NCBI GenBank assembly: GCA_023433465.1
Contig: JAEZCR010000026.1
Location: forward strand, 4,989 to 68,988
Length of the DNA: 64,000 bases
Source of the DNA: Pseudomonadota bacterium
Lineage (GTDB): Bacteria; Pseudomonadota; Gammaproteobacteria; Steroidobacterales; Steroidobacteraceae
Direction: 5' to 3'
A model generated the notes under the pieces. The model was given only the letters and a program-made list of their open reading frames with translations, was not told the origin of the DNA and ran no database searches. Of this stretch, positions 22,252-39,735 are shown one piece after another (the first letter of the stretch is position 1; each line of letters begins with the position of its first letter). A program made the translations under genes and the position numbers.

Positions 22252-24077
22252 TTCGCCACTCCCGCCGCACCGACTGCGACCCTGATTGTCTGCTCGTCCA
22301 GGATCGGTACCACTCCCGATTCGATGACCTGGTGGATCATCGTGCGATACAGGAACAACCACTCACTACCGCCCATCTTCTCGCGGTTGTCGGTCACCAG
22401 CTTCCCGAGTTGCGCCGCGAGCTCCCCGACTTTCTTCCCATGGAGCGCCGCCGCCGCGGCGTTGCTCGCATGAGCGCGTATGGCGGCGATCATGGCATCG
22501 CGCAGGGTCGCGCCAAACATCACGGCACCACCTGCTCTTCCAGCCTCAGTCCACTGCGCCACCGCAACAGACAGCAAGTCCCCTAACAATGTATCGAGAA
22601 GGCTTCCCCGCTCCGCATTGCGCTCGACGCCGAGCAGACGGCCCGGATTCGCCGCCACCTCCTGTGCCGCGGCTGCAAGGATCGCCATCCAGTCGTCCTG
22701 CGACAGCAACAGGTGCTCGTCACTCGCCATCGCCGTCACGATCGCCGAGATGAGTCGATCGATCTCCGCGTTGCGGGTCGATGGCATCAATCCAGGAGTC
22801 GCCGCCACTCGTGCGACGACCACGCGCAGGATACTCTCGATGTTAGCGCGACTCCCGAGCCGTCGGAGCGCAGCCGAATCATCCTGCTTCAGCGCCTGCG
22901 CGATCGGAGCCAGTACCGGATTCAACAGCTGCGCGACGAGATTGTCCCACGGCTTGCCGGGATCGAGCAGCAAGCCACCTTCGCGCGCGAACGATTCGAC
23001 GACGCTCGTCGCGAGATCCAGGACCAGCGATCGGTCGATCGCGGGAGCGCCGGCGGCCACGCTTGCAAGATCCTTGAAGACGGCCCCAATGAGTTTGTCC
23101 GTCGAGTCCTGCGTCTTTCCAAGGAACAGATCCGGGCGCGCGGCAGCGAGTTGTGCGGTGGCCTTGAACAGTTGAACCGCACCGGCCTTCGAGACGACTT
23201 CGGTCAGCCCCAGGTCCGCGATCTTGAGCACGTAAGTGCGCGTCAGCGTCCCGAGGACATCGTCGTTGCCAAACTGTGCGCCGAAGAATGCCCCCGGATC
23301 TTCCGCCAGCGTGCGCAGCGCTTCGCCTGCCACCGGGCCCAACACGTTTTCGAGAACCCCTCGCCACTTGATCTGTTTGTCGAGCGACTCCGGCAGGCTC
23401 TCGACGATTTTCGGAAGCGTGTTCGTCACCAGCTTTTGCAGGTGTGCATCTTCGACGATGGCTTCCGGATGTTCAGCCAGCGCACCGAGCCCGGCCTTGA
23501 GGAAAATGGCCGCGACCCTTTCTCCGAACAGGTTGCGGGGACCGAGCGCGTCGGCATTGTCAGGGACCAGGTCCGCCACGCGCGATGCGACCGCCTTGAC
23601 CAGCGATTCGGCATTGCCGTCGAGACCGAACAACTTCGGGTCGGTGGCTGCGAACTCCGCCGCGACATCGACGATGACGAGGACCACGCGCGCAAACGGG
23701 CCCAGCGGCTCCTCGCCCCTGGCCCATTGATTGACCATCCAGTATCCCGCGAACTCGTCGGCGCGAGACGCAAGGTTCTTGTCGGCGATGATCTGCTGCC
23801 GCGCGTGCTCCGCCGAAAGCAGGTCGAATGCGTCCGCGAGTCGTTCCGCGCCTGGCTTGCCCGTGAACGAATCCCAGTAGCGGCTCAGATCCGGCGTGAT
23901 CTTTTCGGGATGGACCTCGAAGTATCCTCGGACCTTCGCCCGCTGTGGAAACGAAATCTTCTCGACGAGCGGCAGGAGCACCGTGCGATCGCGCGCGTAC
24001 TGCCCGATCGCCTCACTACCTGCGCGCTGCAGTCGGGCGGCGGCGCGAACCGCCATCATGATGAGGGTTGGATTCAC
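22248..24077 (-). CDS. Large (~609 aa) all-alpha, Ala/Leu-rich repeat-like protein, function unknown
   Basis: GTG start at 24077 (VNPTLIMMAVRAA...) overlaps the upstream stop as GTGA (24074-24077). No catalytic motif is seen. The first 85 codons of the ORF are Arg-rich and overlap the previous gene. Confidence 0.6.
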   Translation of the reverse strand: MNPTLIMMAVRAAARLQRAGSEAIGQYARDRTVLLPLVEKISFPQRAKVRGYFEVHPEKITPDLSRYWDSFTGKPGAERLADAFDLLSAEHARQQIIADKNLASRADEFAGYWMVNQWARGEEPLGPFARVVLVIVDVAAEFAATDPKLFGLDGNAESLVKAVASRVADLVPDNADALGPRNLFGERVAAIFLKAGLGALAEHPEAIVEDAHLQKLVTNTLPKIVESLPESLDKQIKWRGVLENVLGPVAGEALRTLAEDPGAFFGAQFGNDDVLGTLTRTYVLKIADLGLTEVVSKAGAVQLFKATAQLAAARPDLFLGKTQDSTDKLIGAVFKDLASVAAGAPAIDRSLVLDLATSVVESFAREGGLLLDPGKPWDNLVAQLLNPVLAPIAQALKQDDSAALRRLGSRANIESILRVVVARVAATPGLMPSTRNAEIDRLISAIVTAMASDEHLLLSQDDWMAILAAAAQEVAANPGRLLGVERNAERGSLLDTLLGDLLSVAVAQWTEAGRAGGAVMFGATLRDAMIAAIRAHASNAAAAALHGKKVGELAAQLGKLVTDNREKMGGSEWLFLYRTMIHQVIESGVVPILDEQTIRVAVGAAGVAK

Positions 24078-25237
24078 GGGCCGGCTCCACCTGCCGGCTG
24101 GCCGCTGGAAGAAGGGGGATGCGCAGCGGCAAAGGCGACTCGGAACGCGTCGACAGGTGTACTCGGTGGCGAACCCGCCGCGGCTCCTGCTCGCGCAGGC
24201 GTATCCGGAGTTTCCGGTTCGCGGCTGCTGGAGCGCGATTGCGCGCCACGCGTGAGACTGCGCGCGAGATCGAACCAGAACGGCGCCCCGAGACCGATCA
24301 GCAGACCCGCGAGGCCCACCGAGAGGATCCACTGCAGTCCGCGGACCGAAGCGATTCGATCGACTATCGATCCGACGTCCATCGGCAGAGCGCGCTGCTC
24401 GTCATCCACACAACCCGCATCGCGAGACCTCGGCGCCTTTCCATCCGCGGCAGCCGTTCGCGGCCGGCAGAAAGGCCAATACTCCGTGGAAATCGGCAGC
24501 CCGGTGTCGTCGATTCGCGCAAGCTCGGCGCGCACTCGCTCCGCGCCCGCATCGACGATTTCGTTTGGGGTGGAAACTTCCGGTCCCGCAGGCACCGGCG
24601 GAGCGCTCATCACGTCGGCAGCGCTCCTGGGACGAGGTGCATTCTCGGCCACCTGGGATTCGAGCGCCTGGACGACACTCTGTGTGAGCTTGTCGTCGTG
24701 CAGCAGCGACTTGAACACCCGCACCGCGTCCACGTTCACCGCGAATGCGCACACCATCGAAACGAGCAGACACCAGAAATGCGCCTGGCCCTGGAATCGC
24801 TGCGAAGCCCCCTGCCCGAAGCGATCGAACTTCTGCGCGAGGTCATTGATGATGATCTGCGTGCGTTCGGCTCCTGTCCGGGCAATCGCATCGCCGACAT
24901 GGGTATCGGCGAGGCGCTCGGCGAACTGCATCATCGACATCGATTTCAAATCGGCGGATTGAGCAATCGAGCGCAACCAGCTGGTCTTCTTCTCGTACGC
25001 CTGGTTGCGTGTGACCGATGCCAGGAACTGGTCACGGGCGGTTTCCATCGAGATCCCGCTCAGCGTCGCGGCTATCCGCGTGCTCAGCACGTCGTCGAAC
25101 AGCCGCTCCATCATGAGCCGGAACCCACGTTCGCGCGTCGAAAGAAGCTGGTAGCCCGTTTCGAGAACGATGGTCACCACCGTGGCGAGCGCCAGCATGA
25201 TCAGTGAAAACGCCAGCGCGGCTTCGAGCCAGTTCAT
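24074..25237 (-). CDS. Three-TM membrane protein (candidate YEATS-associated 3TM, YLATT-like)
   Basis: TM1 LEAALAFSLIMLALATVVTIVL, TM2 FWCLLVSMVCAFAVNV, TM3 LQWILSVGLAGLLIGLGAPFWF, and a Pro/Ser-rich C-terminal tail. It lies directly downstream of the YEATS-TIR gene. Confidence 0.6.
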   Translation of the reverse strand: MNWLEAALAFSLIMLALATVVTIVLETGYQLLSTRERGFRLMMERLFDDVLSTRIAATLSGISMETARDQFLASVTRNQAYEKKTSWLRSIAQSADLKSMSMMQFAERLADTHVGDAIARTGAERTQIIINDLAQKFDRFGQGASQRFQGQAHFWCLLVSMVCAFAVNVDAVRVFKSLLHDDKLTQSVVQALESQVAENAPRPRSAADVMSAPPVPAGPEVSTPNEIVDAGAERVRAELARIDDTGLPISTEYWPFCRPRTAAADGKAPRSRDAGCVDDEQRALPMDVGSIVDRIASVRGLQWILSVGLAGLLIGLGAPFWFDLARSLTRGAQSRSSSREPETPDTPARAGAAAGSPPSTPVDAFRVAFAAAHPPSSSGQPAGGAGP

Positions 25238-25252
25238 GAAACCCCTTGCGTG

Positions 25253-26014
25253 CTACGCCTTTGCTTTCGTCGCCTGAAGGATTTGTGCCGTCGCCGCATC
25301 GAGTTCCGCGGAGGAGCCGATATGGAGAGCGCTCCGGTTGGCGAGCGCTTCCGGCACTTCCGCCGCCGTACCGACGAGCAGAGGGATGACATTCTTGTCC
25401 TCGGCATTCATCGCGTAACCCATCTCGAGCTTCGACCACAAGCTGGGTTTTCCGGAGACGATGAAAACAGTCGCATCGGATTTCTTGATGGCCTGCTTCA
25501 CGAAGTGATCCCACTGCTGCCCAGCCTCCAAGTCGTCCGGCGACGCGATGGTGACTCCGTGACTCTTGAGCTTTTCCTTGAGCTGCCTCGCGAGATCGGA
25601 ATCCGCCGCTCCGTTCGAGACGTACACCGTAGGGTGCTGCTCTGGCAGCTCGGCATCCTTCCTGGGTGGCTTGGGTCCGGGCCTGACGACTGCGCGTCCA
25701 CTCGGCTTTTGCGGAACGATTGCGTCGGGCTCCGCCGGGTATTCGAGCTTGAGCTGGTGAACCCGCTTGAGGTTCTTGCCGGTGGCGCGAACGATCTCGA
25801 TATAGATCTTGAATTCGCCCCAACCTGCCGAATCTAGCCGAAAGCCGTTGCTTCGCTTCTTGATGACGCGAACCGGATCGCGAAATGTGGAGTGGAGCGT
25901 GTAGATCACATGTGTGATGACATCGAGCTCCTTCTTCGGCGCTTCGATCCATACGGACCAGTCCCACCAGTCCTTGGCGCTGTAAGTGGACGATTGTTTG
26001 ATCTGGATGGTCAT
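25253..26014 (-). CDS. YEATS-like domain fused to a TIR domain
   Basis: N-terminal DWWDWSVWIE...ITHVIYTLHSTFRDPVRVI...GWGEFKIYIEIV matches the eukaryotic YEATS signature. C-terminal VYVSNGAADSD...ATVFIVSGKPSLWSKLEMGYA is TIR-like. The ATG overlaps the upstream stop as ATGA (26011-26014). Confidence 0.75.
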   Translation of the reverse strand: MTIQIKQSSTYSAKDWWDWSVWIEAPKKELDVITHVIYTLHSTFRDPVRVIKKRSNGFRLDSAGWGEFKIYIEIVRATGKNLKRVHQLKLEYPAEPDAIVPQKPSGRAVVRPGPKPPRKDAELPEQHPTVYVSNGAADSDLARQLKEKLKSHGVTIASPDDLEAGQQWDHFVKQAIKKSDATVFIVSGKPSLWSKLEMGYAMNAEDKNVIPLLVGTAAEVPEALANRSALHIGSSAELDAATAQILQATKAKA

Positions 26015-26706
26015 GACCGGCCTCCATTCTTGAGCGGTATGCCTATCCACTGTGATTCCGCGTTCGACTGCCAGGGTTTCTTGCCGAGGCCTTCGATTTT
26101 CAGCTGGATCTGATCGTCGTCTTTCACGCCCTCGACCCACACGTAGACACCATCGCCTTCGGGCACCGGCGTTACCTCTGTCCAGGCAGTTCGTTCGCCC
26201 TTCGACCAAAGCCGATGCGAACACCGGGCATCGTCCCCGACGGACTTGAGCTTCCGGCCAAGCTCATCGGGGTTGATGCGCACTTTGACCTTGCGGCCCA
26301 TCCTGAGCTTCCATTCGCCAATGGTTTCCGCCAGCCGCAGAAAGGCCTCGAGCGGACTCGCCCGATCGAACGCGATGATCTCGTGGGACTGGTACATGCC
26401 GCCGACGTCCACATCGGTCTCAACCATCGCGATCGCGGGCTTTCCCTTGTTGCGTGCGTAGTTGATCTCGTCTCGCACCCAGTCGTGCGTGGTGTACTTG
26501 CCGTCCGCTTTCGCGTCCCGGCGCGTCAGCAATCCAACCACCGCATCGCACTCATCGATGCGGGCCTGGACGGCGGGAGTCAGCGCTTCGCCGCCGAGGC
26601 GCTCGCCCGTTACCGGATGCGCGAACTGGCTCGCGAACTGTCGCTCGCACCAACGCACGACGTCCCTATCTACATCACGAAACGAGAACCCCAGAAAGAT
26701 CTTCAT
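26011..26706 (-). CDS. TIR-like domain protein with a C-terminal beta-rich domain of unknown function
   Basis: MKIFLGFSFRDVDRD...CDAVVGLLTRRD...THDWVRDEINYA shows a flavodoxin-like TIR/DUF1863 pattern with a W-x-x-x-E motif. The ATG overlaps the upstream stop as ATGA (26703-26706). Confidence 0.6.
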   Translation of the reverse strand: MKIFLGFSFRDVDRDVVRWCERQFASQFAHPVTGERLGGEALTPAVQARIDECDAVVGLLTRRDAKADGKYTTHDWVRDEINYARNKGKPAIAMVETDVDVGGMYQSHEIIAFDRASPLEAFLRLAETIGEWKLRMGRKVKVRINPDELGRKLKSVGDDARCSHRLWSKGERTAWTEVTPVPEGDGVYVWVEGVKDDDQIQLKIEGLGKKPWQSNAESQWIGIPLKNGGRS

Positions 26707-28316
26707 GACTCCTCCCGCATTACGGCGAGATGCGATTTCACCCAGGTGATGATCGATTGGATCCAGATACCCTCGTTGGCGGGATAAGTACCGGGCTTTC
26801 CATTGAGTTTGGTCATGAGCTTGCCGCCCTTGTGATGCAGCGCGACGACTCCCCACATCTTGTTGAACACCGGGCTGCCGGAATTGCCTTCCTCGGTGGT
26901 CGTGCGATAGTGAACTCGACGAATCTCCGGTCGTGGAGGAGTCCCGTTGGGCGCCCCTTCGTGGTCTAGGATTTCGTTGTCCTGGAACGCGTAGGTCTGC
27001 TCCTCTCCCTGCGGGTGCCCGATGACGAAGACCTGAGGCTGAGGGGGATCGGGCTGGATCGTGGGAAGCCCTTTCGCGATGTCCAGCGGCTTCGGATCCT
27101 TCAAATCTCCTTTGAGGCGCATGAGGCAGAAATCGAGATCATCGCGTGGCGACTCACAGATGATCTCGTCGATCTCGTATGACTGATTGGGGTCGATCGC
27201 TTCGAATCTGACTTCCACGACGTCCGGGGTAGCGCCACCTTCGGCGCCCTTGGAATTCAAGACGTGGAAGTTGGTGAGAAGCAGGAATTCACCGGGATCG
27301 TCGTCCACGAAATCTTTCGAGCGCACCAGGAAACCCGTGCCGAATCGCTTTCCGAGCTTTTGCCGGATCGCCGCGACGCCAAGTCCCTGGTCAAGTCCCC
27401 TGATCCACCACTCCCGCGTCTTCGTTCCTTTTTCGATACCGAGTACCGCCTGGAACTGCGATTCGCTTGGAATCTTTTGCAGAGTCGGACCCGGATCCGC
27501 GGGAATCCTGACAGTGGCGTCCGGCAGACTCATCCTCTGGACCTTCAAGACTTCGAGCGCAGCCTGACCGCGATCGTCCTGATCGAGATTCCACACTTCC
27601 TTGAACTGGCGCAGCGTGCTGCTCAAGTGGAACTCTTTGGTCTTCGGCGATGCCGTGTACTCCCGCAGCGCCGATTCGATCGTTTCCCAGTCCTCGGTGC
27701 CGAGACTGGCTTCGGCGAGCGTCGCCAGGTACCAGTCGTCACGCTCGCCTTCCGGAACTGCCTTCAACGCGCTCAACAACTCCTTCGCCAGCTGCTGGCT
27801 ATCTATGTCCGGCGGGTAGTCGATGCCGTTGCGCTGGCAATGCGCGACACAGGCCAGCAGGTTCACGCCATGCCAGGTATTGCGCCTGGTATCCGCCTGA
27901 TATCCCGCACGGTAGGCCTCGATGGCGTTCGCCATCGAGAGCCGCGCCGCTGTCGAAGCGCGAAATCGCGAATCGAAGTACATCTGCTTGTACGACCTGC
28001 CTAACAACCCGGTGACTTCCGCCATTTCCGGGTGATCCGCGGGAATCCGCCGGCGCAGGACTTCGAGCACGTCCTGCGCGGCGGTGATTCGCCCGGTATC
28101 GATGAGCGCCTGGGCATACAGGCGTCGCGGAGTCGGCTCCACGGGCGCCACGCGGCCTATCGCTTCGGCTACGTCGATCAGCAGGCCGAAATCGCGAATG
28201 TTCCGCAGATCCGTCAGAAGCACGTTCGCCGCAGGCGGATCTTTCAGCGCTCCCGTCTTCCTGAGCTCGGCGATGAGCGCCTTTGCGTTGGCGCGGATTT
28301 CGTCGGCGCTCGCCAC
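26703..28316 (-). CDS. TPR-like (ASK1/DUF4071-like) N-terminal domain fused to a trypsin-like serine protease
   Basis: Catalytic triad candidates are H in LLTNFHVL, D in DDLDFCLMRL and S in GNSGSPVF. The N-terminal ~280 aa is a helical repeat with GLLGRSYKQMY and TWHGVNLLAC motifs. Confidence 0.75.
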   Translation of the reverse strand: MASADEIRANAKALIAELRKTGALKDPPAANVLLTDLRNIRDFGLLIDVAEAIGRVAPVEPTPRRLYAQALIDTGRITAAQDVLEVLRRRIPADHPEMAEVTGLLGRSYKQMYFDSRFRASTAARLSMANAIEAYRAGYQADTRRNTWHGVNLLACVAHCQRNGIDYPPDIDSQQLAKELLSALKAVPEGERDDWYLATLAEASLGTEDWETIESALREYTASPKTKEFHLSSTLRQFKEVWNLDQDDRGQAALEVLKVQRMSLPDATVRIPADPGPTLQKIPSESQFQAVLGIEKGTKTREWWIRGLDQGLGVAAIRQKLGKRFGTGFLVRSKDFVDDDPGEFLLLTNFHVLNSKGAEGGATPDVVEVRFEAIDPNQSYEIDEIICESPRDDLDFCLMRLKGDLKDPKPLDIAKGLPTIQPDPPQPQVFVIGHPQGEEQTYAFQDNEILDHEGAPNGTPPRPEIRRVHYRTTTEEGNSGSPVFNKMWGVVALHHKGGKLMTKLNGKPGTYPANEGIWIQSIITWVKSHLAVMREES

Positions 28317-28319
28317 GTG

Positions 28320-29255
28320 TCAGAGCTCGAGCATGGACCGCAACGCCTGGCGGAATTTCGGCTGCTTGAGATACTTCGTGGCGGAATGACGCCACGCGCC
28401 GTCGTTCTCTATCTGGATGTCCTCGATGCGCTTGACGCTCGAGAAGCGATAGTCGTTGGCGAGTTGGGGATCGAGACCGCAGACCGGATCGAGCCGGTCG
28501 AATAGATTGACCCATCGCTTTGCGACCCGTTCGTTCGGAAAGCCTTCGAGCCGCGACCATCCCGGCTGAAGCTTGTCCTGCACTTCGTCGAGCCCCAATG
28601 GACTGCCGATCGTGATGAGACCATCGACCTTGTTGCAGTCGCCGACTCTCTTGAGGCAGTCGTAGGCGATCACCGTTCCCATGCTGTGCGAAACCACGAT
28701 ATGAGGACCGTTCGACGCAGGCTTGTTCACCTTTTCGACGAAACGTTTGCGAATGGTTTGCTGGATGCGCACGGGCTGGCGACCCGGCGGCGCGAAGCTC
28801 ACGTCGAACAGGTAGTGGTGAACATCACGCAGAAACGCGTTCATGATCGGCTTCTTGATGAACCAGGGCAGCGGGATTCGTTCGAAAGAGCCTCCCGCCG
28901 CGGTCGGTGCCGCCGGCGGAGCCGAAGCGATCTCGTCGTCGTCGCGCGAGGTGAGTTTTTCGCGCAGCCCTTCGATGAACGCGGCTTCTTCCTTGTTGGC
29001 CGGCGTGGGGATGTCCTTGGCTCCGGCCGAGTCGGCGGCGGCATCCCTGTTGGCGTCCGTGCTCTCGAAATTGCTGACGTCGGTGATGGGCTCGCCGTAC
29101 AGGAGATCCGCCCAGTACACCATCGACGTGGTTACACCGTCGGTCTCGAGCGAGAGCGGCTCAGCCGCCGCCTCGAGCGCCTCGCACCAGATTCGGAGCA
29201 ATGTCTTCTCTTCGGGCTTGTTGGCGATGCCGTGTATGAAAGTGACGTGTGCCAT
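28320..29255 (-). CDS. Alpha/beta-hydrolase (lipase/esterase-like)
   Basis: Oxyanion-hole VTFIHGI and nucleophile elbow VVSHSMGTV. No signal peptide. It ends 3 nt before the next start. Confidence 0.7.
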   Translation of the reverse strand: MAHVTFIHGIANKPEEKTLLRIWCEALEAAAEPLSLETDGVTTSMVYWADLLYGEPITDVSNFESTDANRDAAADSAGAKDIPTPANKEEAAFIEGLREKLTSRDDDEIASAPPAAPTAAGGSFERIPLPWFIKKPIMNAFLRDVHHYLFDVSFAPPGRQPVRIQQTIRKRFVEKVNKPASNGPHIVVSHSMGTVIAYDCLKRVGDCNKVDGLITIGSPLGLDEVQDKLQPGWSRLEGFPNERVAKRWVNLFDRLDPVCGLDPQLANDYRFSSVKRIEDIQIENDGAWRHSATKYLKQPKFRQALRSMLEL

Positions 29256-29289
29256 GGGTACTCCCTGATTCCTCGTGTACTGTGCCCGA

Positions 29290-29904
29290 TCAAAGGTCGA
29301 AGGCAGGATCTTCGCCGATGTCCGGGATCTTCATGGTCGGTTCCTTCGCCGAAGGCTCGAGACCCCGCATCGATTCGAAGCCCGGTAGCCCCGCTTCCTT
29401 GCGAAGGGCATTGAGGCGATTGAGCCACCCCTTCCTGAACACGGCGAGCTTGGGATTCTTCTCTATGAGCCGCCCATAGAAGGCTTCACGCGCATCGCAA
29501 TATCGAATGACCACTTCGCCGTGATCGCACTCGGCGACTGCCTTTGCCGTGCCGGACCCGAAATCACCATCGACCGCGCAGTTCGCGGCGCCCTGCAGGA
29601 AACGCACGGCTCGGCCCACACCCATGTTCACCGCGGTATCGAACTGAACGAGGTCCAGCGGGTCGTTGAGCAGCTCACAACGGGCCGCGAGCCAGTAGCC
29701 GGACTCGTAGATCGATTGAACTTCATCCTCGGAGATGAGCTTGACGTCCTGCGGCCCGGCACCCTGCCGTGCCCGCCACTGGTCGTAGACTTTCTGGGTG
29801 ACTCCCCTGTTGGTGCGGCCGCCGGGGTCGTCGGGGTGATCGACGAACCCGCCCTCCCAACGCAATACGAATTTGAGCGCAGAAGTCAGCTGGGTGGATG
29901 GCAT
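29290..29904 (-). CDS. GH108-family N-acetylmuramidase with a PG_binding_3-type peptidoglycan-binding domain
   Basis: LRWEGGFVDHPDDPGGRTNRGVTQ is the GH108 catalytic motif. It is followed by DGDFGSGTAKAV (PG-binding). No signal peptide or holin is nearby. It is the first gene of the operon. Confidence 0.8.
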   Translation of the reverse strand: MPSTQLTSALKFVLRWEGGFVDHPDDPGGRTNRGVTQKVYDQWRARQGAGPQDVKLISEDEVQSIYESGYWLAARCELLNDPLDLVQFDTAVNMGVGRAVRFLQGAANCAVDGDFGSGTAKAVAECDHGEVVIRYCDAREAFYGRLIEKNPKLAVFRKGWLNRLNALRKEAGLPGFESMRGLEPSAKEPTMKIPDIGEDPAFDL

Positions 29905-30297
29905 GGGTCCGTCCGGACGCGCCGCGTCGCGAGTAGCTAGCTATTGTTCTTGTGATGCCCGCACCATAGTACAGGTGCGATCCGGGCCGCAATCCCGATC
30001 GGCGCGCCTCGTTCACCGAGTGCCAAATAGTACCGATGGGTGTACTGTCCGCGCGTCACCGGCGGACGACGCGATCTAGTTAGTTTCTGCGACCATTGGT
30101 GCGACGCGCAATTGTTCCATCGGGATGCCTGGAATGCCCCGTCTTCATGACCCATTCGAGTACGGTGTTCGTGCGGGCTGCGGTCACGCGATCCGGCGGC
30201 TGCCTATCTGGAAGGAATTCAACGACTTCACCGCGCCGACAATGGCCGCGGATGGTCGCGGGAAGTCGTTCGTTGCCCTAACAAGGAGCAACCGGCG

Positions 30298-33117
30298 ATG
30301 ACGAATCCGCGGAAACGCAGCTTCAAGGCATTCATCTCCTATAGCCACGCCGCGGATGGCAAGCTCGCCCCCGCGGTGCAACGTGCGCTGCATCGCATCG
30401 CCAAGCCGTGGTACCGCATCCGTACCATGCGTGTGTTTCGCGACCAGACGAATCTGGCCGCCAGCCCCGGGCTGTGGTCGTCGATCGAATCGGCGCTGGA
30501 ACAAGCCGAGTACTTCCTCTACATGGCCTCGCCGCAGGCCGCGCAATCTCCATGGGTGCAGAAGGAAATCGAATGGTGGTTGAGCAACCGCTCGCCGCAG
30601 ACCTTCCTCATCCTGCTCACGGACGGCCAGATGGCGTGGAACAGCGAAGCGGCGGATTGGGACTGGAGCAACACGACGGCATGGCCTTCCCAGGCGGCCC
30701 GCGCATTCCGCGAAGAGCCGTTGTACACGGATCTTCGCTGGGCTCGAAAGGAGGAGCAGCTCTCGGCACGGCACTCGCAGTTTCGAGCGGCGATGCTCGA
30801 TCTCGCTGCCACGCTGCTGGGCCGTCCGAAGGATGAGCTCGACGGCGAGGATGTGCGTCAGTACCGTCGGACCCGACGCATCGCCGGGCTCGCGATCGTG
30901 ACACTCGCCGCGTTGTTCATTGCCGCCGCGGTCGCGGCCTACCAGGCTACCCAGCAGAGCAGATTGGCGACCTCGCGTGCGCTGGGCGCGCGATCCGAAG
31001 CTCTGTTGCCGACGAATCCGGAACTCGCCCTGCTGCTGGCGCGCGAGGCCGTCAGCGTACGAGCGGATGAGCAAGCCGTGTTCGCATTGCGCCAGGCGTT
31101 CGTGCGCAATCCCCTGCGCGTGTTTCACCAGGCCCCGTCCGGCACGAACCTCGCCGCGGCCTTTGCCAGTGCCGATGCGGTCGTGGTTGCGGATCCCGAC
31201 GGGGGCGCGAGCATCTGGAGTGTCGCCTCGGGAACCCGCATCGCGGGTGTGGCGGCCGAGCCCGGCGACCGGGCCAGGGTGAGTCATTCGAACGACGGCA
31301 CGATGGTCGTCATCGGCACCGAGGAACCGGAATTCGCCGTCCATGACGCGAAGTCTTGGCAGGTCATCCGGCAGCTTCCCGGAAGCCGCGCGCGATTCAC
31401 TCGCGATGGCAAGACTCTCGTCGCCGAAGACAATGGGGCAATCAGGCAGTGGGACGTGCCATCGCTGAGCGAGCGCGTCTCCCCGATCAAACTACCGAGC
31501 GGGCATTCCTTGTCGGCACCCGCTCCGGATGGTCGCGTGTTCGTGCTGGCGAGTGACGGCGACCCGCTCGAGTTCGTGGTTGTCGATGCGCGCAGCGCGC
31601 GGACCGTCGCGCGGATTCCCGCGATACCGATGGTGGAAGGAGATCCATTGAGCCCCGACGGTACGCTGCTGCTCGTCCAGGATGAGGACCTCGAGCTTTG
31701 GGATACGCGGACCGGCAAGCGGGTGCGGTCGCTGCAACAGCCGGAGTTCGGCGGCATTGGCTGGACGACGTTCGCCGCCTTCACACCCGATGGCGCGAAG
31801 GTCTTCACCGGCAATCGCAACGGCGAGATCCACGCCTGGAAGGTGGCGACGGGTGAATACCTGAGGAATTGGACTCTGCATCGCAACGATATCCGCGCGA
31901 TCGAATTCAGTCGTGACGGGCAGACCATGCTCACCGGCGGAGCGGACGGAACGGTGTGCCTCTGGGAGGTGCCGGGCGACGTCCTGGCGGTTTCGAGCGA
32001 CCGCTGTCTCGTGACCTTGGGAGGCAGAGGCGACGACGCCTGGGACTTCTCCTTTGCCCCGGACGGTCGCCACTTTCTGACGACTCATATGGATGGCACG
32101 GTTCGCGTGTGGGATCGAGAGACCTGGCACCCCAGCGTGACCGTTCCCGGCACGACCATGGCCGCCAGTGAGGACGGCCGGTTCGTCTTGAGTTCCGCGG
32201 ACGATCAACCGCTGCGACTCTGGGATGGAGAGTCCGGCGCGCTGCAAGCAACCCTCGAAATGACGGGAGAGTCCATCGAAGCAATGGCGGTGAGTGGCGC
32301 TGCATCGCTGTTTGCCGTCGCGCGGAAGGAAGGAACCGTTGGGCTTTGGCGCATGCCGTCCGGCGAGCTCGCACTGCAACTGCCCGCAAGCTCCGGCAGC
32401 ACCCAGGCGCTGGCGTTCAATCGCGCCGGAACTGAACTGGTCACCGCGGGAGCGGATGGAAAGATCCGCTTCTGGAGCACGGGTGCGCCGCAGTTATTGC
32501 GCGAGTGGGCCGCGTCTGGTGGAAGTATCGCGAAGCTTCTCGTCGAGAATGATGACAGGCATATCGTTCTGACCTTCGACCCCGGAACGGTGCAAGTGCG
32601 CGACATCGAGAACGGCGCGGTGATCTCGGAGACGAAAGTCGTGGCCGAGGGACGTACCGCGGGAGTCTTGACGCCCGGTGCGAATCGGATGTTGCTGGCC
32701 GTGGTCGACGATCGGTTTCCTGAATTGTGGAATCTCGGGACCGGCAAGAGAGTGTTGACCCTTCCCGGCCACACTGACGAGGTGTGGTCGACGGCGCTGA
32801 GCTCCGATGGCCGGTTCTTGCTGACCGGCAGTGGTTTCTTCATGTCCCGAGGTGAAGCACCCGAAGATGGCAACGCGATACGAATCTGGGACGCACAGAG
32901 CGGCCGCGAAATTCTCAGTTACCGGGCGCCCGGATGGGTGGTGAACCAGGTGGCCTTTGCCGGCGACGACACGACTATCTTCTCGGCCAGCCGGGACGGG
33001 ATGGTGCGACGCTTCCGCTGCGAAGTCTGCCTTCCTCTGGAAGAGCTGCAGTCGCTCATATCCTCGCGCGTGACGCGCGAGCTGACGGCGGGCGAGCGCG
33101 CTCAATATGTTCCGTGA
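30298..33117 (+). CDS. TIR - single TM - WD40 (double beta-propeller) protein
   Basis: AAGGAG RBS. TIR motifs FKAFISYSHAADG and SPWVQKEIEWW. The positive patch RQYRRTRR is followed by TM IAGLAIVTLAALFIAAAVAAY. There are then ~700 aa of WD repeats (GADGTVCLWEV, MDGTVRVWD, GADGKIRFWS, HTDEVWSTALSSDGRFLLTGS). Confidence 0.85.
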   Translation: MTNPRKRSFKAFISYSHAADGKLAPAVQRALHRIAKPWYRIRTMRVFRDQTNLAASPGLWSSIESALEQAEYFLYMASPQAAQSPWVQKEIEWWLSNRSPQTFLILLTDGQMAWNSEAADWDWSNTTAWPSQAARAFREEPLYTDLRWARKEEQLSARHSQFRAAMLDLAATLLGRPKDELDGEDVRQYRRTRRIAGLAIVTLAALFIAAAVAAYQATQQSRLATSRALGARSEALLPTNPELALLLAREAVSVRADEQAVFALRQAFVRNPLRVFHQAPSGTNLAAAFASADAVVVADPDGGASIWSVASGTRIAGVAAEPGDRARVSHSNDGTMVVIGTEEPEFAVHDAKSWQVIRQLPGSRARFTRDGKTLVAEDNGAIRQWDVPSLSERVSPIKLPSGHSLSAPAPDGRVFVLASDGDPLEFVVVDARSARTVARIPAIPMVEGDPLSPDGTLLLVQDEDLELWDTRTGKRVRSLQQPEFGGIGWTTFAAFTPDGAKVFTGNRNGEIHAWKVATGEYLRNWTLHRNDIRAIEFSRDGQTMLTGGADGTVCLWEVPGDVLAVSSDRCLVTLGGRGDDAWDFSFAPDGRHFLTTHMDGTVRVWDRETWHPSVTVPGTTMAASEDGRFVLSSADDQPLRLWDGESGALQATLEMTGESIEAMAVSGAASLFAVARKEGTVGLWRMPSGELALQLPASSGSTQALAFNRAGTELVTAGADGKIRFWSTGAPQLLREWAASGGSIAKLLVENDDRHIVLTFDPGTVQVRDIENGAVISETKVVAEGRTAGVLTPGANRMLLAVVDDRFPELWNLGTGKRVLTLPGHTDEVWSTALSSDGRFLLTGSGFFMSRGEAPEDGNAIRIWDAQSGREILSYRAPGWVVNQVAFAGDDTTIFSASRDGMVRRFRCEVCLPLEELQSLISSRVTRELTAGERAQYVP

Positions 33118-33314: not shown

Positions 33315-34682
33315 TTGGCCATGGCAAAGAGCATTTTCGTCAGCCACATCTCGGAGGAACGCGAGATCGCGGCGTTCATCAAGCGCGCGATGACCGACGC
33401 CTTCGATGCTGTCGCGGTTTTCACGTCCAGCGATGTCGGCAGTGTCGGCGCCGGTGACGATTGGCTGAATGCGGTCAAGAAGGCGCTGGCGCGCTCCGCC
33501 GCGATCATCGTGTTGTGCAGCCAGGAGTCCATCAACCGGCCATGGGTGCAGTTCGAACTGGGAGCCGCGTGGATGTTGAAGAAGCGGATCATCCCGATTT
33601 GTCATTCCGGCCTCAGAACCGAGCACCTGTCGATTCCGCTGTCCTTGCTCGAGGCCGTGGAACTGGGCACGGAATCAGGATTGCGAAAACTCTACGCCGG
33701 CGTCGTCAAAGCGCTGAGGGTGAAAGCGGAGCGAGTCCCCGCTGACATGCAGGAATTGTTGCGCGAAGCCCGGGCCCTGCAACGGGATCTCGGCGTGCAC
33801 CAGTTCGAGATGTACATCGACATCCTGATCCCGCGTGACGAACTGGGCGGCAGGATTCCGGGAACGGCGCGAATCGAATCCGACAACAGGTCGATGGAGC
33901 TGTTCGGTTTTCGGAACTCAAAGGGCTGCACCTGGAGCGACATCGAGCGCGCCGCCGACGTCAGCGCCGATACGCGCTGGCTGGACCAGCTGCACGAATG
34001 CGTTCGCAGGGCCAGTCGGAACGAACATTTCGAGGCCGTGCAGGCTATCTACCACACCGGGCGTGGCCGATCCTTCCAGCCGCAGCTGGCGAAGATGCAG
34101 TTGCAGTCGGACGGCACGTGCCGTTTCCACGTGCATCTCGTGGAGACGGTGGTCGCGCCGCTCGTGGAGGTGAACAACGAGTTCGGCCTGCTTGCGACGC
34201 TGTTGCGGTTGGGGATGCGCTTTCGCTACGAGGTGATCGAGAAATACGCCCGGTTCAACAGGGACGCCAGGGCGAGTTCGTCCGACCCGCTGATGATCGA
34301 GCGATACGTCCGCGAAGCACTGCGAGCCGCGATTCTCGTCATCGAGCGCGATGCGGCTTCGCGAGGCTCGGCGATCCTCATGGATCCGGACGCCCTGCTG
34401 GCGCTGTTCGATCGGGATTCGGAGCGCGAGCAGATAGAAAGTCACCAAGCCCTCTGGCAGCGCGATCGGGCATTGTTGTTCAAGAACGATCCGCCGCCGA
34501 CATTGCCGCAGCTGGATGCGATCATCGCCAACCTGCGCGGCATGAACTGGCGCTTCATGAGCCTTGCCACGCAGCGCTGCAATGAGATCGTCAGCACGCG
34601 CTGGTCTGGTGATTCGGCTACGCCGGTCGCCGGGCGGCGGGTCCAACTCGCGCCGGGCAGGACGAACATGCTGGACGGTTGA
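33315..34682 (+). CDS. TIR domain protein with a ~320-aa C-terminal domain of unknown function
   Basis: SIFVSHISEEREIA...AAIIVLCSQESINRPWVQFELGAAW is a TIR pattern with W-x-x-x-E. The remainder is helical with no motif I recognise. Confidence 0.7.
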   Translation: MAMAKSIFVSHISEEREIAAFIKRAMTDAFDAVAVFTSSDVGSVGAGDDWLNAVKKALARSAAIIVLCSQESINRPWVQFELGAAWMLKKRIIPICHSGLRTEHLSIPLSLLEAVELGTESGLRKLYAGVVKALRVKAERVPADMQELLREARALQRDLGVHQFEMYIDILIPRDELGGRIPGTARIESDNRSMELFGFRNSKGCTWSDIERAADVSADTRWLDQLHECVRRASRNEHFEAVQAIYHTGRGRSFQPQLAKMQLQSDGTCRFHVHLVETVVAPLVEVNNEFGLLATLLRLGMRFRYEVIEKYARFNRDARASSSDPLMIERYVREALRAAILVIERDAASRGSAILMDPDALLALFDRDSEREQIESHQALWQRDRALLFKNDPPPTLPQLDAIIANLRGMNWRFMSLATQRCNEIVSTRWSGDSATPVAGRRVQLAPGRTNMLDG

Positions 34683-35300: not shown

Positions 35301-36161
35301 CTACGGCTTCCGCACGCCGAAGAGGTGCGGCCATAGTTTCTGGCACTCAGCCGCAGTCGGGTAACGGCCGTATCTCTGGTTGAATTCCTCCCCTACGCGG
35401 TTGCATTCGCGCCAATCAGCTTGGGGAATAGCACGGACCTCCGGCAAAGGACGCATCACGGGAGTGCTTGGTCGATCTGAGACGGGAAGCACTGGCGACC
35501 TGATGCGACTACGTGCGAGCGCGGAACGGAACATAGATGCGAACAGCCGCTCCGGCTCGCGCTGCTCGGGATGGAATAACCAAACCTTGGAAGCCAGGTC
35601 CTTCTGCAACTTCATTTGCAACGCTTCTCGCGGAAGCATGGAGTCGCCGGCATCAAGTCGAATCTCGATAGCGGGAACGTTCCGGCGTCGGATCTTGCGC
35701 AGCTTTGCACGCGTCACTTTGTGCGTAACTGCAACTTCAAGTATCAACGCTTTTGCATCGGACTCGATGATGATGTCGGGAACGAAGTCGCCCTCATTTT
35801 TCTCGACCCTGACTCTGCGGATCGGAAACTGTTCGCCATCGGCCACCAGGGCCTGGTGCCGAACGGACACACCGAGCTTTGTCTTGCGTTGTCTGACGAA
35901 GTCATAGGGTGGGACCGTGAAGGAGTCCAACTCCGCTAGCAGTTCCTTAGCAAGCATGTGCAGAGCTGATTCGGCAGCGCCTTGGCAACTGGTGACCTCG
36001 AAGTGAGCGAAATGGTGTCGGCGAATTGATCCCTTCTTTGCAACCAGTGGCTTGCCGCAGCGGGCGCACATACATCCGCAAGCTAAGCCACTCGGTACAT
36101 TCCCAATGAACTGCAAATTGCCGTCGCGCAGCCCATAACCACTGCAATCACCGGCGATCAC
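35301..36161 (-). CDS. CoiA-like nuclease family protein
   Basis: An N-terminal Cys cluster CGCMCARCGKPL...RRHHFAH, then a PD-(D/E)xK-like FVPDIII...LILEVAVTHK. It lies 47 nt downstream of the E2 gene on the same strand. Confidence 0.6.
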   Translation of the reverse strand: MIAGDCSGYGLRDGNLQFIGNVPSGLACGCMCARCGKPLVAKKGSIRRHHFAHFEVTSCQGAAESALHMLAKELLAELDSFTVPPYDFVRQRKTKLGVSVRHQALVADGEQFPIRRVRVEKNEGDFVPDIIIESDAKALILEVAVTHKVTRAKLRKIRRRNVPAIEIRLDAGDSMLPREALQMKLQKDLASKVWLFHPEQREPERLFASMFRSALARSRIRSPVLPVSDRPSTPVMRPLPEVRAIPQADWRECNRVGEEFNQRYGRYPTAAECQKLWPHLFGVRKP

Positions 36162-36208: not shown

Positions 36209-36883
36209 TTATGCCTTGCTCATGCGCTTTAGCGCTTCATCTACGGGCCTGATCGCCTTCGATGCATCACTGCGAGGGATCTTGTCCCGCAAGTTGCGCA
36301 CCATCTCGAAGTGGCAGTCCCGAATTCTTTTTCCGCTACCACACGGGCAGTCCCAGTGGCCTTTGACTCTCTTCGCGGCAAGGAGCTCGAAGTACTTCTT
36401 CACCTTCACCAAGTCGTCGGTGTCGAAAATCTCCTGATAGAACTGCTTGCGGCCATATAGACCGTGATCCCACTGACCGAAAGGCCACACTCCATCGCGT
36501 TCAAATACAGCTTGGCCAATGAAATAGTTCCGGACAGGACCGTCGATGAAATCCAGCAGGGATTTTCCTTTGGGCCAAACCCGCCAGCGTTCCTCAGGAA
36601 GAAAGAGGCACGATGCGCCGGTTTCATAGCAGTGCCGATCCAGGGTGCGTGGAATCCGCCCGGCGGTTTCGAATACCACCGGCACGCCCTCTGGATAATC
36701 TTGCGGGAGCTGAATTTCAATCGAAAAGCGGTCGAGGATCTTGCTGCCTTCCTTGATCTCTAGGCTGCCTGAAATCCTGACCTGGCCTTCGAGCACCGAG
36801 AAGTGCAGATGCGGGTACACCTGCGCGACTTCTGCCTTCTCTCGATCGAAGGCGACGAGATCACGTTCGTGCCATGCCTTCAT
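36209..36883 (-). CDS. CBASS E2-only (Cap2-like, ubiquitin-conjugating-fold) protein with a C-terminal SEC-C motif
   Basis: UBC-like core with PQDYPEGVPVVFE and a candidate catalytic Cys in HCYETGASCLFLP. C-terminal CPCGSGKRIRDCH. The start overlaps the CD-NTase stop (ATGA). Confidence 0.7.
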   Translation of the reverse strand: MKAWHERDLVAFDREKAEVAQVYPHLHFSVLEGQVRISGSLEIKEGSKILDRFSIEIQLPQDYPEGVPVVFETAGRIPRTLDRHCYETGASCLFLPEERWRVWPKGKSLLDFIDGPVRNYFIGQAVFERDGVWPFGQWDHGLYGRKQFYQEIFDTDDLVKVKKYFELLAAKRVKGHWDCPCGSGKRIRDCHFEMVRNLRDKIPRSDASKAIRPVDEALKRMSKA

Positions 36884-37785
36884 AACTCATCGGATGCCCA
36901 CGGCCTCGTCGGCGTGGCCACCGCGGCGGCGACACGGCGCAAGGCTGCGCGATTGTCCTCTTCGGAGTCGTCATCGACTTCGCCGAAGACGGCCGTCCAG
37001 CCGGACGACTGGACCAACGCGAGCGTCTGTCTGGCAACCGACCGCAAAGTCGACCGCGCCGCGTCTAGGGCAGGAGAAAGGTCGTTGCCCTCCGGGTTCG
37101 CGGGGTCCTCAACCGTGAGGTTGTCGATGTTGTCGCGGAACTCCGTCAGCACGTGTTCGAGCTGTGATTCGAGGCTCGACCGTTTGCGCCCGTCGAGCAG
37201 CTTGATGACCGAGAGTTCAAGCACAAAGTGCTTGAATGCGATCCCATTGCGGACCTTCCACAGCTTCACCAATCTGATTGCGTCGGTGACGCCGCTGTCG
37301 CGCACGTGCTCGATATGCACGTCGATGTTCGTCTTCAGGCGCTTCTTTTCCGCGCTTGACTGGTAGAGAAACGCGTCCGTCTTGGTGTCGTCGGTGAATC
37401 TGCCCGGCACCACGTCGATGTGGAAGTCGAGCCCCCTGCGCGTCGGGTCGGCATCCTTCAATCGAAGCGCCGAAGTCTTCGGTTCAACGACGTACTCCTT
37501 CTGGAGCGCGATCTTCGCGTTGTTGTAGATGTCCTCGAGGGTGCCGCCCGCGTCTTCGTCGTCGCGCGGGAAGTAGCAGATGATGTCGAGGTCATAGGAC
37601 TCCTTGATCATCGTTCCCTTCGCCTTCGAACCACCGTATCGAATCGTCGGTGAACTGTCCGCGAAGTGGTCGCGGAGGAGTTTCTCGACATCTGCGCGGT
37701 GATTCTGCAACGCCTTCAGTTCCGCGCTTCCTTCGGCGAGGATCTGAGCGTCAAGCACTTTCTTGAGATATTCGTTCGTGGTCAT
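36880..37785 (-). CDS. CD-NTase (cGAS/DncV-like nucleotidyltransferase, SMODS)
   Basis: Pol-beta NTase motifs GGSKAKGT and YDLDI, plus the third acidic residue in FHIDVVPG. Confidence 0.8.
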   Translation of the reverse strand: MTTNEYLKKVLDAQILAEGSAELKALQNHRADVEKLLRDHFADSSPTIRYGGSKAKGTMIKESYDLDIICYFPRDDEDAGGTLEDIYNNAKIALQKEYVVEPKTSALRLKDADPTRRGLDFHIDVVPGRFTDDTKTDAFLYQSSAEKKRLKTNIDVHIEHVRDSGVTDAIRLVKLWKVRNGIAFKHFVLELSVIKLLDGRKRSSLESQLEHVLTEFRDNIDNLTVEDPANPEGNDLSPALDAARSTLRSVARQTLALVQSSGWTAVFGEVDDDSEEDNRAALRRVAAAVATPTRPWASDEL

Positions 37786-37787
37786 AG

Positions 37788-38987
37788 TTAGTTCACTTCT
37801 ACTGCCAATGTAAATCCGCCGGTCGCCTTATTGGCGTCGTACACCAGCAGCTTCGGATCAATTTTCGGAAGCACCTCGCGTCCGCAGAGCACGGCCACGG
37901 GCGCGGGAACGGCGGGAAATAGGTGGAGCTCAGCCACACCGGGATGCGACCCGCCTATCTTTCTGAGGGCGGATTGATACGCGATCTGGAACGCCTTCAA
38001 ATCCTGGCGCGAGTTCAGGAACGTCGGGACGGGCTCGATTCCATCGAGCGTCAACTCGTAGACGGTGTACCGATCGTCGATTGTGGGCGGAAGCGATCCC
38101 AGGTGAATTCGGCCACTGAGCGATAGGCACAGCGCTACGCTCGTAGGATCGGTTCCGCTTCTCAGCGTGTTGAGGGTGAACTCGACGGGTGCATCCGTCG
38201 TTTTCCACCCCCACCGCCCTGTGTCACGGTGACGCTGAAAGACCTCCGAAGGAACTTTATCGCTCAGTTCGCGCCCGAGGCACACCAGGAGCGGAATCGG
38301 GCCGAGCGCAAACACCGAAACGTGCTGAACAGCGACGCCGTCCAGACCCGTCGATGAGAGCGACGCGACCTTCTGCGCGATCTCGCGGCGCGCGAGGTTG
38401 ATGAAATCGGACCCTGCGTCATCGATTGACGTCAGGTCGATGACGATCCCCTTCCTGTCGGCCGGATACCGCGGCTCGACTGCACGCGTGACGTCGTGGT
38501 ACGGAATCTCCACGGTGCGCCCGGCGATCCGCGCCTTGAGCTGGATCACCGTTGTCTTGTGGTCTTCCGCAAATCCGGTGATATGGCGAATGCGTTCCTC
38601 GTGGGAACGTTTCGCCGCCTTCAACCGGGTGATCGTGTATTCGCGGGGGTTGTCGTCGATCAGCTTGTGGCACGGGGGACAGAGCAGCATCAGGTTGCTG
38701 ACATCGTTGATCCGATCCGCGGCAACCTTCTTATTCGCGCGCGGCCCGCGACCGCTGAAGGCAACGATGTGCGCTTGCTGGCCAAAGTTTCCAGGCGTCA
38801 GCGTCAGCCGATGCTCCAGCAGGAAGTCGTTGCAGCCAGGGAACTCGCACCGACCCCCCGCCGCCACGAAAAGCTGCAGCTGCGTGTGGTGTTTGATCGC
38901 GCGCGTCCGGACCAGCGTCACCGGCGACGCTTTTCGTTCGCTTACCTGCTTTGCGCGCTTCTTGGGATGCCGAGTAGACATACCCAA
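37788..38987 (-). CDS. cap5: CBASS effector Cap5 (HNH endonuclease fused to SAVED sensor domain)
   Basis: HNH motifs CEFPGCN...QAHIVAF...NLMLLCPPCHKLID, followed by a ~270-aa SAVED-like C-terminal region. It ends 2 nt before the CD-NTase start. Confidence 0.75.
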   Translation of the reverse strand: MGMSTRHPKKRAKQVSERKASPVTLVRTRAIKHHTQLQLFVAAGGRCEFPGCNDFLLEHRLTLTPGNFGQQAHIVAFSGRGPRANKKVAADRINDVSNLMLLCPPCHKLIDDNPREYTITRLKAAKRSHEERIRHITGFAEDHKTTVIQLKARIAGRTVEIPYHDVTRAVEPRYPADRKGIVIDLTSIDDAGSDFINLARREIAQKVASLSSTGLDGVAVQHVSVFALGPIPLLVCLGRELSDKVPSEVFQRHRDTGRWGWKTTDAPVEFTLNTLRSGTDPTSVALCLSLSGRIHLGSLPPTIDDRYTVYELTLDGIEPVPTFLNSRQDLKAFQIAYQSALRKIGGSHPGVAELHLFPAVPAPVAVLCGREVLPKIDPKLLVYDANKATGGFTLAVEVN

Positions 38988-39027
38988 CAGTGTAAGCTTC
39001 CGCTGTACAGTGTCAAGGACGCCGCAG

Positions 39028-39735
39028 CTACAGCATCATTTGACCGTTCTTCTCAAGCCTATAAAGGTCTTCGAGCCGATACTGCGCCACCACCGGATTT
39101 ACATCGAAAATCTCGGACAAGAGCGCCGCCGCGTCCGAAAATTTCTCTGGTTCCAAGATCGTCCCGCCGAGTCCGCCGCTCGAGACCATCATCGGCTTCA
39201 GCGCAGCCGCGACCAATCCCCGAGGTAGGAGCAGACCACCAATCGTCCGATTCGCCTGGTACTCGGACCACGTGGACTTCGGGCGAACTGCCGCTTCCAG
39301 AGGGCTACCCAATACCTCGCGGCAGAGAATCTGACGGCCCTGGCACGCATCACGGTCGAAAAGGTTCGTCTTCGGTTGCGCTAGCGCAAACAAATGCGCG
39401 TGGAGAAATCCGTGACCAGCCTCGTGGGCGAGCGTCGAGCGCACACGCCTTTCGGCCGGTTTACCTTCCTCGTCCGCAAGCTCTCGGGAAATCACGATCG
39501 CCTTGACGCCTTTCTCGCTGAACTCGGTGAAGCCGAGTACGCCATCGGGAAGATCGTCATAGGAAGGCACGATCCCAAATCGCTTTTCGATGAAGCGATC
39601 AATTCGAATTGGTTCAGGCGCTGAGGGGTAGAGGCCGACCTTCCGCAGCTGCTCAACGCACGTGCGATCAATCTCTGCGGGCTCAAAGTGCGGCCGCTCA
39701 GAAAATGGACCCGTGTTCGTGCGAATCGTCTTCAT
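39028..39735 (-). CDS. capP: ImmA/IrrE-family zinc metallopeptidase (CapP-like)
   Basis: HEXXH motif LAHEAGHGFLH. It is coupled to the upstream HTH gene by an ATGA overlap. Confidence 0.7.
   Translation of the reverse strand: MKTIRTNTGPFSERPHFEPAEIDRTCVEQLRKVGLYPSAPEPIRIDRFIEKRFGIVPSYDDLPDGVLGFTEFSEKGVKAIVISRELADEEGKPAERRVRSTLAHEAGHGFLHAHLFALAQPKTNLFDRDACQGRQILCREVLGSPLEAAVRPKSTWSEYQANRTIGGLLLPRGLVAAALKPMMVSSGGLGGTILEPEKFSDAAALLSEIFDVNPVVAQYRLEDLYRLEKNGQMML

Follow-up and report, generated by a model that had tools for sequence, protein, structure and literature searches.

Within the 64,000 nt stretch of contig JAEZCR010000026.1 analysed here (the window, whose positions are used throughout), the complete open reading frame (ORF) at 30298-33117 on the + strand encodes a protein of 939 amino acids (aa) in which an N-terminal TIR domain, one transmembrane (TM) helix and a double WD40 propeller follow one another. 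Sequence features and the structural model support an N-in/C-out topology in which the TIR domain is predicted to be cytoplasmic and the propellers to lie outside, and the hydrophobic helix between them is a defining feature of the protein family. The sequence itself shows a ribosome-binding site (AAGGAG, 30284-30289) 8 nt ahead of the ATG. Identical copies of the protein are on record from four metagenomic contigs of independent origin, with an ENA and a Logan assembly among them. All features of the gene given below are on the + strand.

The sole hydrophobic segment of the protein is IAGLAIVTLAALFIAAAVAAY, at aa 195-215 (30880-30942), which is predicted from its hydropathy, from shuffles and from its conserved position to be a TM helix of the signal-anchor, N-in type. 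None of its 21 residues has a charged or strongly polar side chain, the mean Kyte-Doolittle hydropathy over 19 aa is 2.6, with no other window above 1.6, and the summed value on the Hessa scale is -2.25. When this Ala/Leu/Val-rich protein was shuffled, 16 of 5000 shuffles reached a hydropathy of 2.6; judged against chance on the single sequence, the segment is unusual, not overwhelmingly so. It is preceded by a juxtamembrane linker defined from the consensus and the model (RPKDELDGEDVRQYRRTRR, aa 176-194, 30823-30879), in which an acidic patch is followed by a basic one. The linker consensus KDELDGEDVRQxRRTRR abuts the membrane helix, with D185 and R187 invariant (alignment A1), and the 15-residue flank before aa 195-215 holds five Lys or Arg residues (K/R), including RRTRR, compared with two in the flank after it. 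In an AlphaFold run with a 51-sequence alignment, which gave a mean predicted local distance difference test (pLDDT) of 88.9 and a predicted template-modelling score (pTM) of 0.77, the linker is helical from aa 184 and continuous with the TM helix, forming an uninterrupted helix of 53 residues (aa 184-236, pLDDT 90-97). This helix is far longer than the width of the TIR domain and therefore, if the model is correct, cannot be a buried core element.

The position of the hydrophobic span is conserved among relatives. A search with aa 1-282 gave 758 close relatives, of which the best 120 were inspected; a hydrophobic span was found at a like position in 100 of these 120, the exceptions being mostly short fragments. 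Likewise, 128 of the 129 new 50%-identity cluster representatives carry the span, and in every reconstructed genomic ORF except one fragment of 156 aa it came directly after the TIR module. Because these 128 representatives and the full-length genomic relatives keep the position, the helix is not a chance feature. Over the same aligned pairs, median identity was 59% for the TIR/cytoplasmic module, 33% for the hydrophobic span and 21% for the ectodomain. The lower identity of the span compared with that of the TIR module indicates that hydrophobicity is conserved rather than sequence, as in lipid-facing helices, and the difference between ectodomain and TIR is suggestive of sensor-like evolution.

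With regard to orientation, the protein has the features of a bitopic type II signal-anchor protein of the inner membrane, namely one span of about 20 aa, a positive-inside flank and no cleavable signal peptide. Neither in the protein nor in the representatives does a hydrophobic segment or signal peptide precede the TIR region of about 190 aa, and the family mean of K/R per 15-aa flank is 4.45 on the N side versus 2.95 on the C side. One relative, P0092 (loci L011 and L012), is a complete gene with the architecture TIR-TM-dCache_1, dCache_1 replacing the propellers (full-length profile match over aa 225-460, 55.4 bits, cut-off 45). Cache domains have been described as extracellular sensors (PMC4822843), and the location of dCache_1 after the TM helix in P0092 supports a C-terminal region that lies outside. 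Among the ectodomains of at least 550 aa the number of Cys residues, most often two or four, was even in 106 of 149 and odd in 43 (binomial p = 2.5e-7, relatedness ignored), and a related C...C motif was present in the tails of 92 of the 149 long ectodomains; the cytoplasmic modules of the same proteins mostly contained no Cys. Even counts and co-occurring CxxC may be taken, indirectly, as the signature expected of a disulfide-forming compartment, and the conserved Cys pair of a short class of relatives (TIR, TM and a 56-aa tail) points indirectly to the same orientation.

The sequence-only reading had placed a basic patch before a single TM helix and had drawn an N-in orientation from it. RRTRR does precede aa 195-215, exactly one hydrophobic segment exists, and every computational test run (charge bias, absence of a signal peptide, dCache_1, Cys parity and the helix) agrees with the predicted orientation. 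The helix proved to be conserved among homologues, both in the cluster representatives and in the full-length genomic relatives (128/129 for the former), and the opposite case, a segment buried in a soluble fold, is not favoured by the model, whose 53-residue helix would be too long for the interior of a TIR domain. The roughly fourteen WD repeats proposed at the same time are matched by the 14 blades of the model, arranged in two 7-bladed propellers.

The predicted cytoplasmic TIR domain occupies approximately aa 9-175 (30322-30822) according to Pfam, the AlphaFold model and Foldseek. When the N-terminal half was scanned alone, Pfam TIR_2 (PF13676) matched aa 12-110 with 35.9 bits (cut-off 28), and PF13676 was present in all listed relatives. 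In the model, the module consists of alternating strands and helices, from E9-14 to H160-174 (pLDDT 85.6). Its top Foldseek matches in the Protein Data Bank (PDB) were TLR15, MAL, TLR1, L6, MyD88, SARM1, ThsB, SPARTA and AbTir, with TLR2 and TLR10 also among the best (probability ~1.0, target TM-score 0.5-0.68). The N-terminal alignment showed F12, S14, Y15 and S16 (FxSYSH motif) to be invariant, with D49 and W60 also invariant or conserved. From the alignment of relatives, the codon of a putative catalytic glutamate, Glu90, was located at 30565-30567 within the motif S84-x-W86-x3-E90-x3-W94. E90 was invariant in 51 of 51 aligned relatives, and an invariant Glu at the catalytic position argues for enzyme activity of the TIR domain.

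In the order given by the model, the alpha/beta domain (aa 9-175) and the long helix (aa 184-236) are followed by two cap helices, 58 strands and two terminal helices. The predicted extracytoplasmic stalk and helical cap (aa 216-270, 30943-31107; model helices H184-236, H241-254 and H258-269) carry a LALLLAREA motif that is also present in the family consensus. WD40 and beta-propeller families, dozens of which match the C-terminal two-thirds of the protein, span about aa 290-905, and the 58 strands between aa 274 and 907 correspond to 14 four-stranded blades. The first 7-bladed propeller (approximately aa 272-590, 31111-32067) was delimited by model strand count; its blades are divergent and its boundary approximate, with weak matches to WD40 families at aa 290-420 and strong ones from aa 451. 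The second 7-bladed WD40 propeller (approximately aa 591-907, 32068-33018) was recognised from Pfam WD40/propeller families and the model. The best Foldseek matches of the whole model were double propellers, namely 2ymu (E 7.9e-39), Apaf-1 and Aip1. The protein ends in a helical tail (aa 908-939, 33019-33114; helices H914-924 and H931-937) with C908-x-x-C911 and R-x-LT-x2-ER-x2-Y; among relatives, C908 and C911 were both present in nine, both absent in 40 and present singly in two.

An exhaustive profile-free search over 1.84 billion cluster representatives returned 11,509 matches at E <= 1e-3 and 3,421 at E <= 1e-30, the top matches being mostly 850-1200 aa long. The family extends over at least eight phyla and comprises no fewer than 3,400 clusters at 50% identity, so that the rarity of TM-bearing TIR-WD40 proteins implied by the sequence-only reading was mistaken. 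At least 386 relatives were confirmed in a scan of one genome per species, and genomic relatives were found in Acidobacteriota, Nitrospira, Desulfobacterota, Verrucomicrobiota, Methylomirabilota, Alpha-, Beta- and Gammaproteobacteria, Flavobacteriaceae and many Actinomycetota. Actinoplanes possesses several copies, some of them in tandem, and tandem paralogs also occur in Spirilliplanes and Methylorubrum; the conjugative megaplasmid pCMU01 of Methylorubrum extorquens CM4, a methylotroph open to genetic work, carries two tandem members of 982 and 973 aa (locus L093, 306752-312718). RefSeq labels the members, both pCMU01 copies included, only as ‘TIR domain-containing protein’. In the searches with aa 1-282, with the TM helix plus linker and with the first propeller, every protein listed had about 540 aa or less, which is read as a bias of the tool; the TM helix plus linker alone gave one match and the first propeller only generic WD40 fragments. 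No relative was found in the phage collection searched.

Besides dCache_1, other rare replacements follow the TIR-TM module, namely TPR repeats and a 745-aa all-helical domain (P0149 and P0188). A short class of about 267 aa (P0013 at loci L007-L009; P0005 and P0038) consists of TIR, TM and a conserved 56-aa tail with exactly two cysteines, 32 residues apart (LCKSLDEAQ...EQCK). Complete genes of this class, set among housekeeping genes, occur in a Candidatus Binatia metagenome-assembled genome and in other samples. Short TIR-TM genes followed by WD40 genes (L004, L005, L006 and L010) were also considered as a separate arrangement; their frames are adjacent or overlapping and most of them are taken to be frameshifted full-length genes, the 267-aa class being real. 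In the long-read metagenome contigs L004, L006 and L010 the gene is broken into overlapping ORFs, for which frameshift errors are the probable cause.

The stalk varies in length. In Micromonosporaceae (Actinoplanes, Paractinoplanes and Spirilliplanes) it measures 165-265 aa, of which 68-77% are A, E, Q, R or K, and in diderm members about 33-45 aa. Long stalks were recorded at loci L037, L039, L044, L048, L051, L053, L056, L058, L066, L069-L073, L075-L078, L080, L081, L084, L085, L087 and L091, and several of these Micromonosporaceae members are tandem paralogs. The long stalk could serve as a spacer for a thick wall, but long stalks are confined to Micromonosporaceae and other actinobacteria are without them, so stalk length as a ruler of the envelope was not retained.

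By its predicted gene content the surrounding region of the window is a dense defence island. A divergent, apparent operon of seven genes (22248-29904, - strand) lies beside the TIR-TM-WD40 gene and encodes a GH108 lysozyme with PG_binding_3, an alpha/beta-hydrolase, a TPR-S plus trypsin-like protease, a 231-aa protein, a pYEATS-TIR protein and two further products (387 and 609 aa) that lack a Pfam match. Directly downstream, at 33315-34682 (+ strand), is a gene for a second TIR_2 protein of 455 aa, whose C-terminal ~330 aa have no Pfam match and which shows weak likeness to ThsB, PADLOC TIR-TM (5.4e-4) and retron-TIR models; this gene is not conserved beside relatives of the TIR-TM-WD40 gene. 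A CoiA-like gene (35301-36161) and, in the region 36209-45182 (- strand), a CBASS operon with E2-like (PADLOC 4.5e-62), CD-NTase (2.3e-72) and SAVED-HNH effector genes lie further on, and within this region the CBASS operon is followed by the gene for a 1636-aa type ISP restriction-modification enzyme.

The alpha/beta-hydrolase and TPR-S-protease pair recurs divergently beside a TIR-TM-WD40 gene in L005 (52 and 38% identity, respectively). As a general operon partner the pair was rejected, being absent from the 80 genomic loci, and all-against-all clustering of flanking ORFs in these 80 loci revealed no recurrent neighbour family. As no conserved partner gene was found, the TIR domain is most likely its own effector. 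The protein is thus best described as a stand-alone unit, for which an immune role is plausible, not established.

We consider it probable that the protein is a self-contained, single-pass type II (N-in/C-out) sensor-effector in which binding outside would lead to NAD+ cleavage by the TIR domain, a proposal built from sequence and model. The hydrophobic helix would act as signal-anchor, the C-terminal 720 aa being exported to the periplasm by Sec while the TIR domain remains at the membrane's inner face. The propellers, which evolve fast, would bind an extracytoplasmic macromolecule, and binding would cluster or re-orient receptors through the stalk, TM helix and juxtamembrane helix; the rigid helix running from the basic patch through the membrane into the stalk would couple the ectodomain to a TIR domain only some 10-20 residues from the membrane. 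TIR domains brought together in this way may form an active, NAD+-cleaving oligomer. The outcome would be either depletion of NAD+, so that growth stops or the cell dies, or the release of a signal derived from ADP-ribose. Candidate triggers are phage or toxin at the envelope, damage to the cell wall, and kin or neighbour cues. A narrower version, which we put forward only tentatively, is that the propellers are hypervariable and recognise a foreign macromolecule (for example the tail or receptor-binding protein of a phage, a toxin, or a protein on the surface of a neighbour) before entry, so as to switch on the TIR NADase; this would be outside-in immunity parallel to that of Toll-like receptors (TLRs).

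Several points weigh against this proposal. The positive-inside margin is modest, at about 1.5 K/R, the Cys parity test treats related sequences as independent, and CxxC can also bind metal. The Foldseek E-values of the TIR module are only ~1e-3; a PDB search with the single sequence gave no match, and one with a profile gave only marginal TIR matches, none of them significant. For NADase activity the basis is a single invariant Glu together with a profile alignment that is weak (PDB, E = 0.08) and that pairs E90 with the Glu of flax L6 SKWCLMELAEI, which we take to be the catalytic residue of NAD-cleaving TIRs. Enrichment of the family in defence islands was not supported: about five of 110 flanking ORFs at 32 diverse loci matched PADLOC at 1e-8, and by Pfam these flanks were mostly metabolic and transport genes. 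The island context in the window is the sole basis for a defence role.

The same flanks bear on a different reading of the same topology, in which the TIR domain would be a non-enzymatic scaffold or a signal synthase in non-immune signalling (development, social behaviour or envelope homeostasis). Mostly housekeeping or metabolic genes with few defence matches were found in the 32 loci and also at L001, L007 and L010, paralogs are expanded in developmentally complex Actinoplanes, and the kinase-TM-WD40 architecture has been read as signalling (PMC11032199). The invariant Glu at the catalytic position argues for an enzyme, no conserved downstream partner is encoded nearby, and the copy in the window sits among the operon of pYEATS-TIR and TPR-S-protease genes, a second TIR gene, CBASS and a type ISP enzyme; on balance we regard a non-immune signalling role of this kind as unlikely.

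Rather improbable, in our view, is an activation by proteolytic release, by analogy with the regulated intramembrane proteolysis of anti-sigma factors. Here the tether would hold the TIR domain inactive until the ectodomain is clipped after an insult to the envelope and the TM helix is cut, and the freed TIR would oligomerise in the cytoplasm. Dictyostelium TirC becomes toxic once its TM helix is removed, for which its authors propose a proteolytic trigger (PMC13142454), the class with TIR, TM and a 56-aa tail shows that the tether alone is a viable unit, and a TPR-S/trypsin-like protease gene is near, both here and in L005. None of the 80 genomic loci has that protease as a neighbour, however, no cleavage motif was identified, and the juxtamembrane segment, strongly conserved, helical and running on into the TM helix, fits conformational coupling better.

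A soluble, cytoplasmic TIR-WD40 sensor, with the helix serving as an oligomerisation or coiled-coil element, is very improbable. It is true that chance alone yields such segments, at a low frequency, in a protein so rich in Ala, Leu and Val, as the 16 of 5000 shuffles show, that WD40 sensors of the STAND/Apaf type are cytoplasmic and that Foldseek matches Apaf-1. Yet the segment has 21 residues without charge or strong polarity and a negative summed Hessa value, lies within a solitary 53-residue helix, has a basic patch on one side only, and is kept in position in 128/129 representatives while its sequence drifts, and the dCache_1 variant and the Cys pairing signals also speak against this explanation. 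An inverted, N-out topology, with the TIR domain outside and the propellers in the cytoplasm, is hardly credible, since nothing specific favours it beyond the fact that a single span alone leaves orientation unfixed, whereas neither a signal peptide nor a hydrophobic segment precedes the folded 190-aa TIR, K/R are more frequent on the N side, the dCache and Cys-pair ectodomains are C-terminal to the TM helix and NAD+, the substrate of TIR, is cytoplasmic.

For the sensor-effector proposed here, the closest precedent is a group of bacterial receptor Ser/Thr kinases, described in Planctomycetota, Myxobacteria and cyanobacteria (PMC11032199), in which a single TM helix is followed by WD40 or TPR arrays at the C-terminus. 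These share an N-terminal cytoplasmic, nucleotide-using catalytic domain, one TM helix and long repeats predicted to be periplasmic, the kinase topology also being a prediction, and their TPR arrays are mirrored by the rare TPR variants of the TIR family. They differ in output, which is TIR here, the 939-aa protein having no Pkinase match.

Animal Toll-like and interleukin-1 (IL-1) receptors likewise combine an ectodomain built of repeats, one TM helix and, in the cytoplasm, a TIR domain within about 20 residues of the membrane, and the logic of TLRs with inverted polarity, as the protein had been characterised before, is a fair description of an architecture in which the TIR is N-terminal. 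TLRs are type I proteins with a signal peptide and a C-terminal TIR, whereas the present protein is predicted to be type II, with an N-terminal TIR and no signal peptide; its ectodomain consists of WD40 propellers instead of LRR or Ig domains, and the Glu at the catalytic position suggests an enzyme here, as opposed to the adaptor scaffold of Toll-like/IL-1 receptors. Membership of the TLRs was rejected on the N-terminal TIR, the missing signal peptide and the WD40 rather than LRR ectodomain, and no evidence was found for common descent of the whole architecture with Toll-like/IL-1 receptors.

Like ThsB, TIR-STING, TIR-SAVED, SPARTA TIR-APAZ and TIR-STAND/Avs-like proteins, the protein joins a TIR domain with a Glu at the catalytic position, putatively so here, to a sensor. 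These soluble bacterial systems are cytoplasmic sensors that work with partner proteins or nucleotide signals; the protein in the window has a TM helix and a predicted extracytoplasmic sensor, and has no NTPase, SAVED, STING or Ago partner. Assignment to Thoeris was rejected, the ThsB matches being weak (PADLOC 1.1e-4, 20 bits; Pfam ThsB_TIR 20.4 bits, below the cut-off of 21.2), and a ThsA-like (SIR2/Macro-SLOG) neighbour was neither present here nor recurrent in the 80 loci. A STAND/NLR architecture (TIR-NTPase-WD40) was rejected as well, as there is no NTPase family match and only about 100 aa (linker, TM helix and stalk) lie between the TIR domain and the first blade. The PADLOC candidate model ‘TIR-TM’ (PDLC03016) is not among the matches of the 939-aa protein and matches only the neighbouring 455-aa TIR protein, weakly. 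Anchoring of a TIR domain at the membrane by one hydrophobic helix is shared with Dictyostelium TirC (PMC13142454) and with E. coli TIR systems that have a TM element (PMC11350192), and the relatives with TIR, TM and a 56-aa tail resemble membrane-tethered TIR NADases that lack an ectodomain. Unlike the 939-aa protein, TirC has its helix N-terminal to the TIR and no large ectodomain.

No description of a TIR-TM-WD40 family was found in open-access papers and bioRxiv. Surveys from the Aravind laboratory treat TM-associated conflict systems, not the TIR-TM-WD40 architecture, and a 2017 survey of prokaryotic WD40 proteins makes no mention of TIR. The authors of a 2024 survey of E. coli TIR systems noted that bacterial TIR systems seem to lack the transmembrane and ectodomain features of TLRs (PMC11350192). 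What was known beforehand is that periplasmic WD40 arrays behind a single TM helix are predicted for kinases (PMC11032199).

The family described here is very large and phylogenetically broad, and wires a conserved TIR domain through one membrane helix to a variable, predicted extracytoplasmic domain. To our knowledge, cue detection is cytoplasmic in nearly all bacterial TIR systems that have been characterised and in most bacterial immune sensors. Tractable test cases within the family are offered by Methylorubrum extorquens CM4, Mesorhizobium, Desulfosediminicola flagellatus, Actinoplanes and Streptomyces. If its role is in ordinary signalling, the family would add a new output class beside histidine kinases, chemoreceptors, Ser/Thr kinases and anti-sigma factors. 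If both the topology and the NADase activity hold true, it would let bacteria connect the periplasm or cell surface directly with a TIR output, and would offer a useful comparison for how receptor logic of the TLR type arises.

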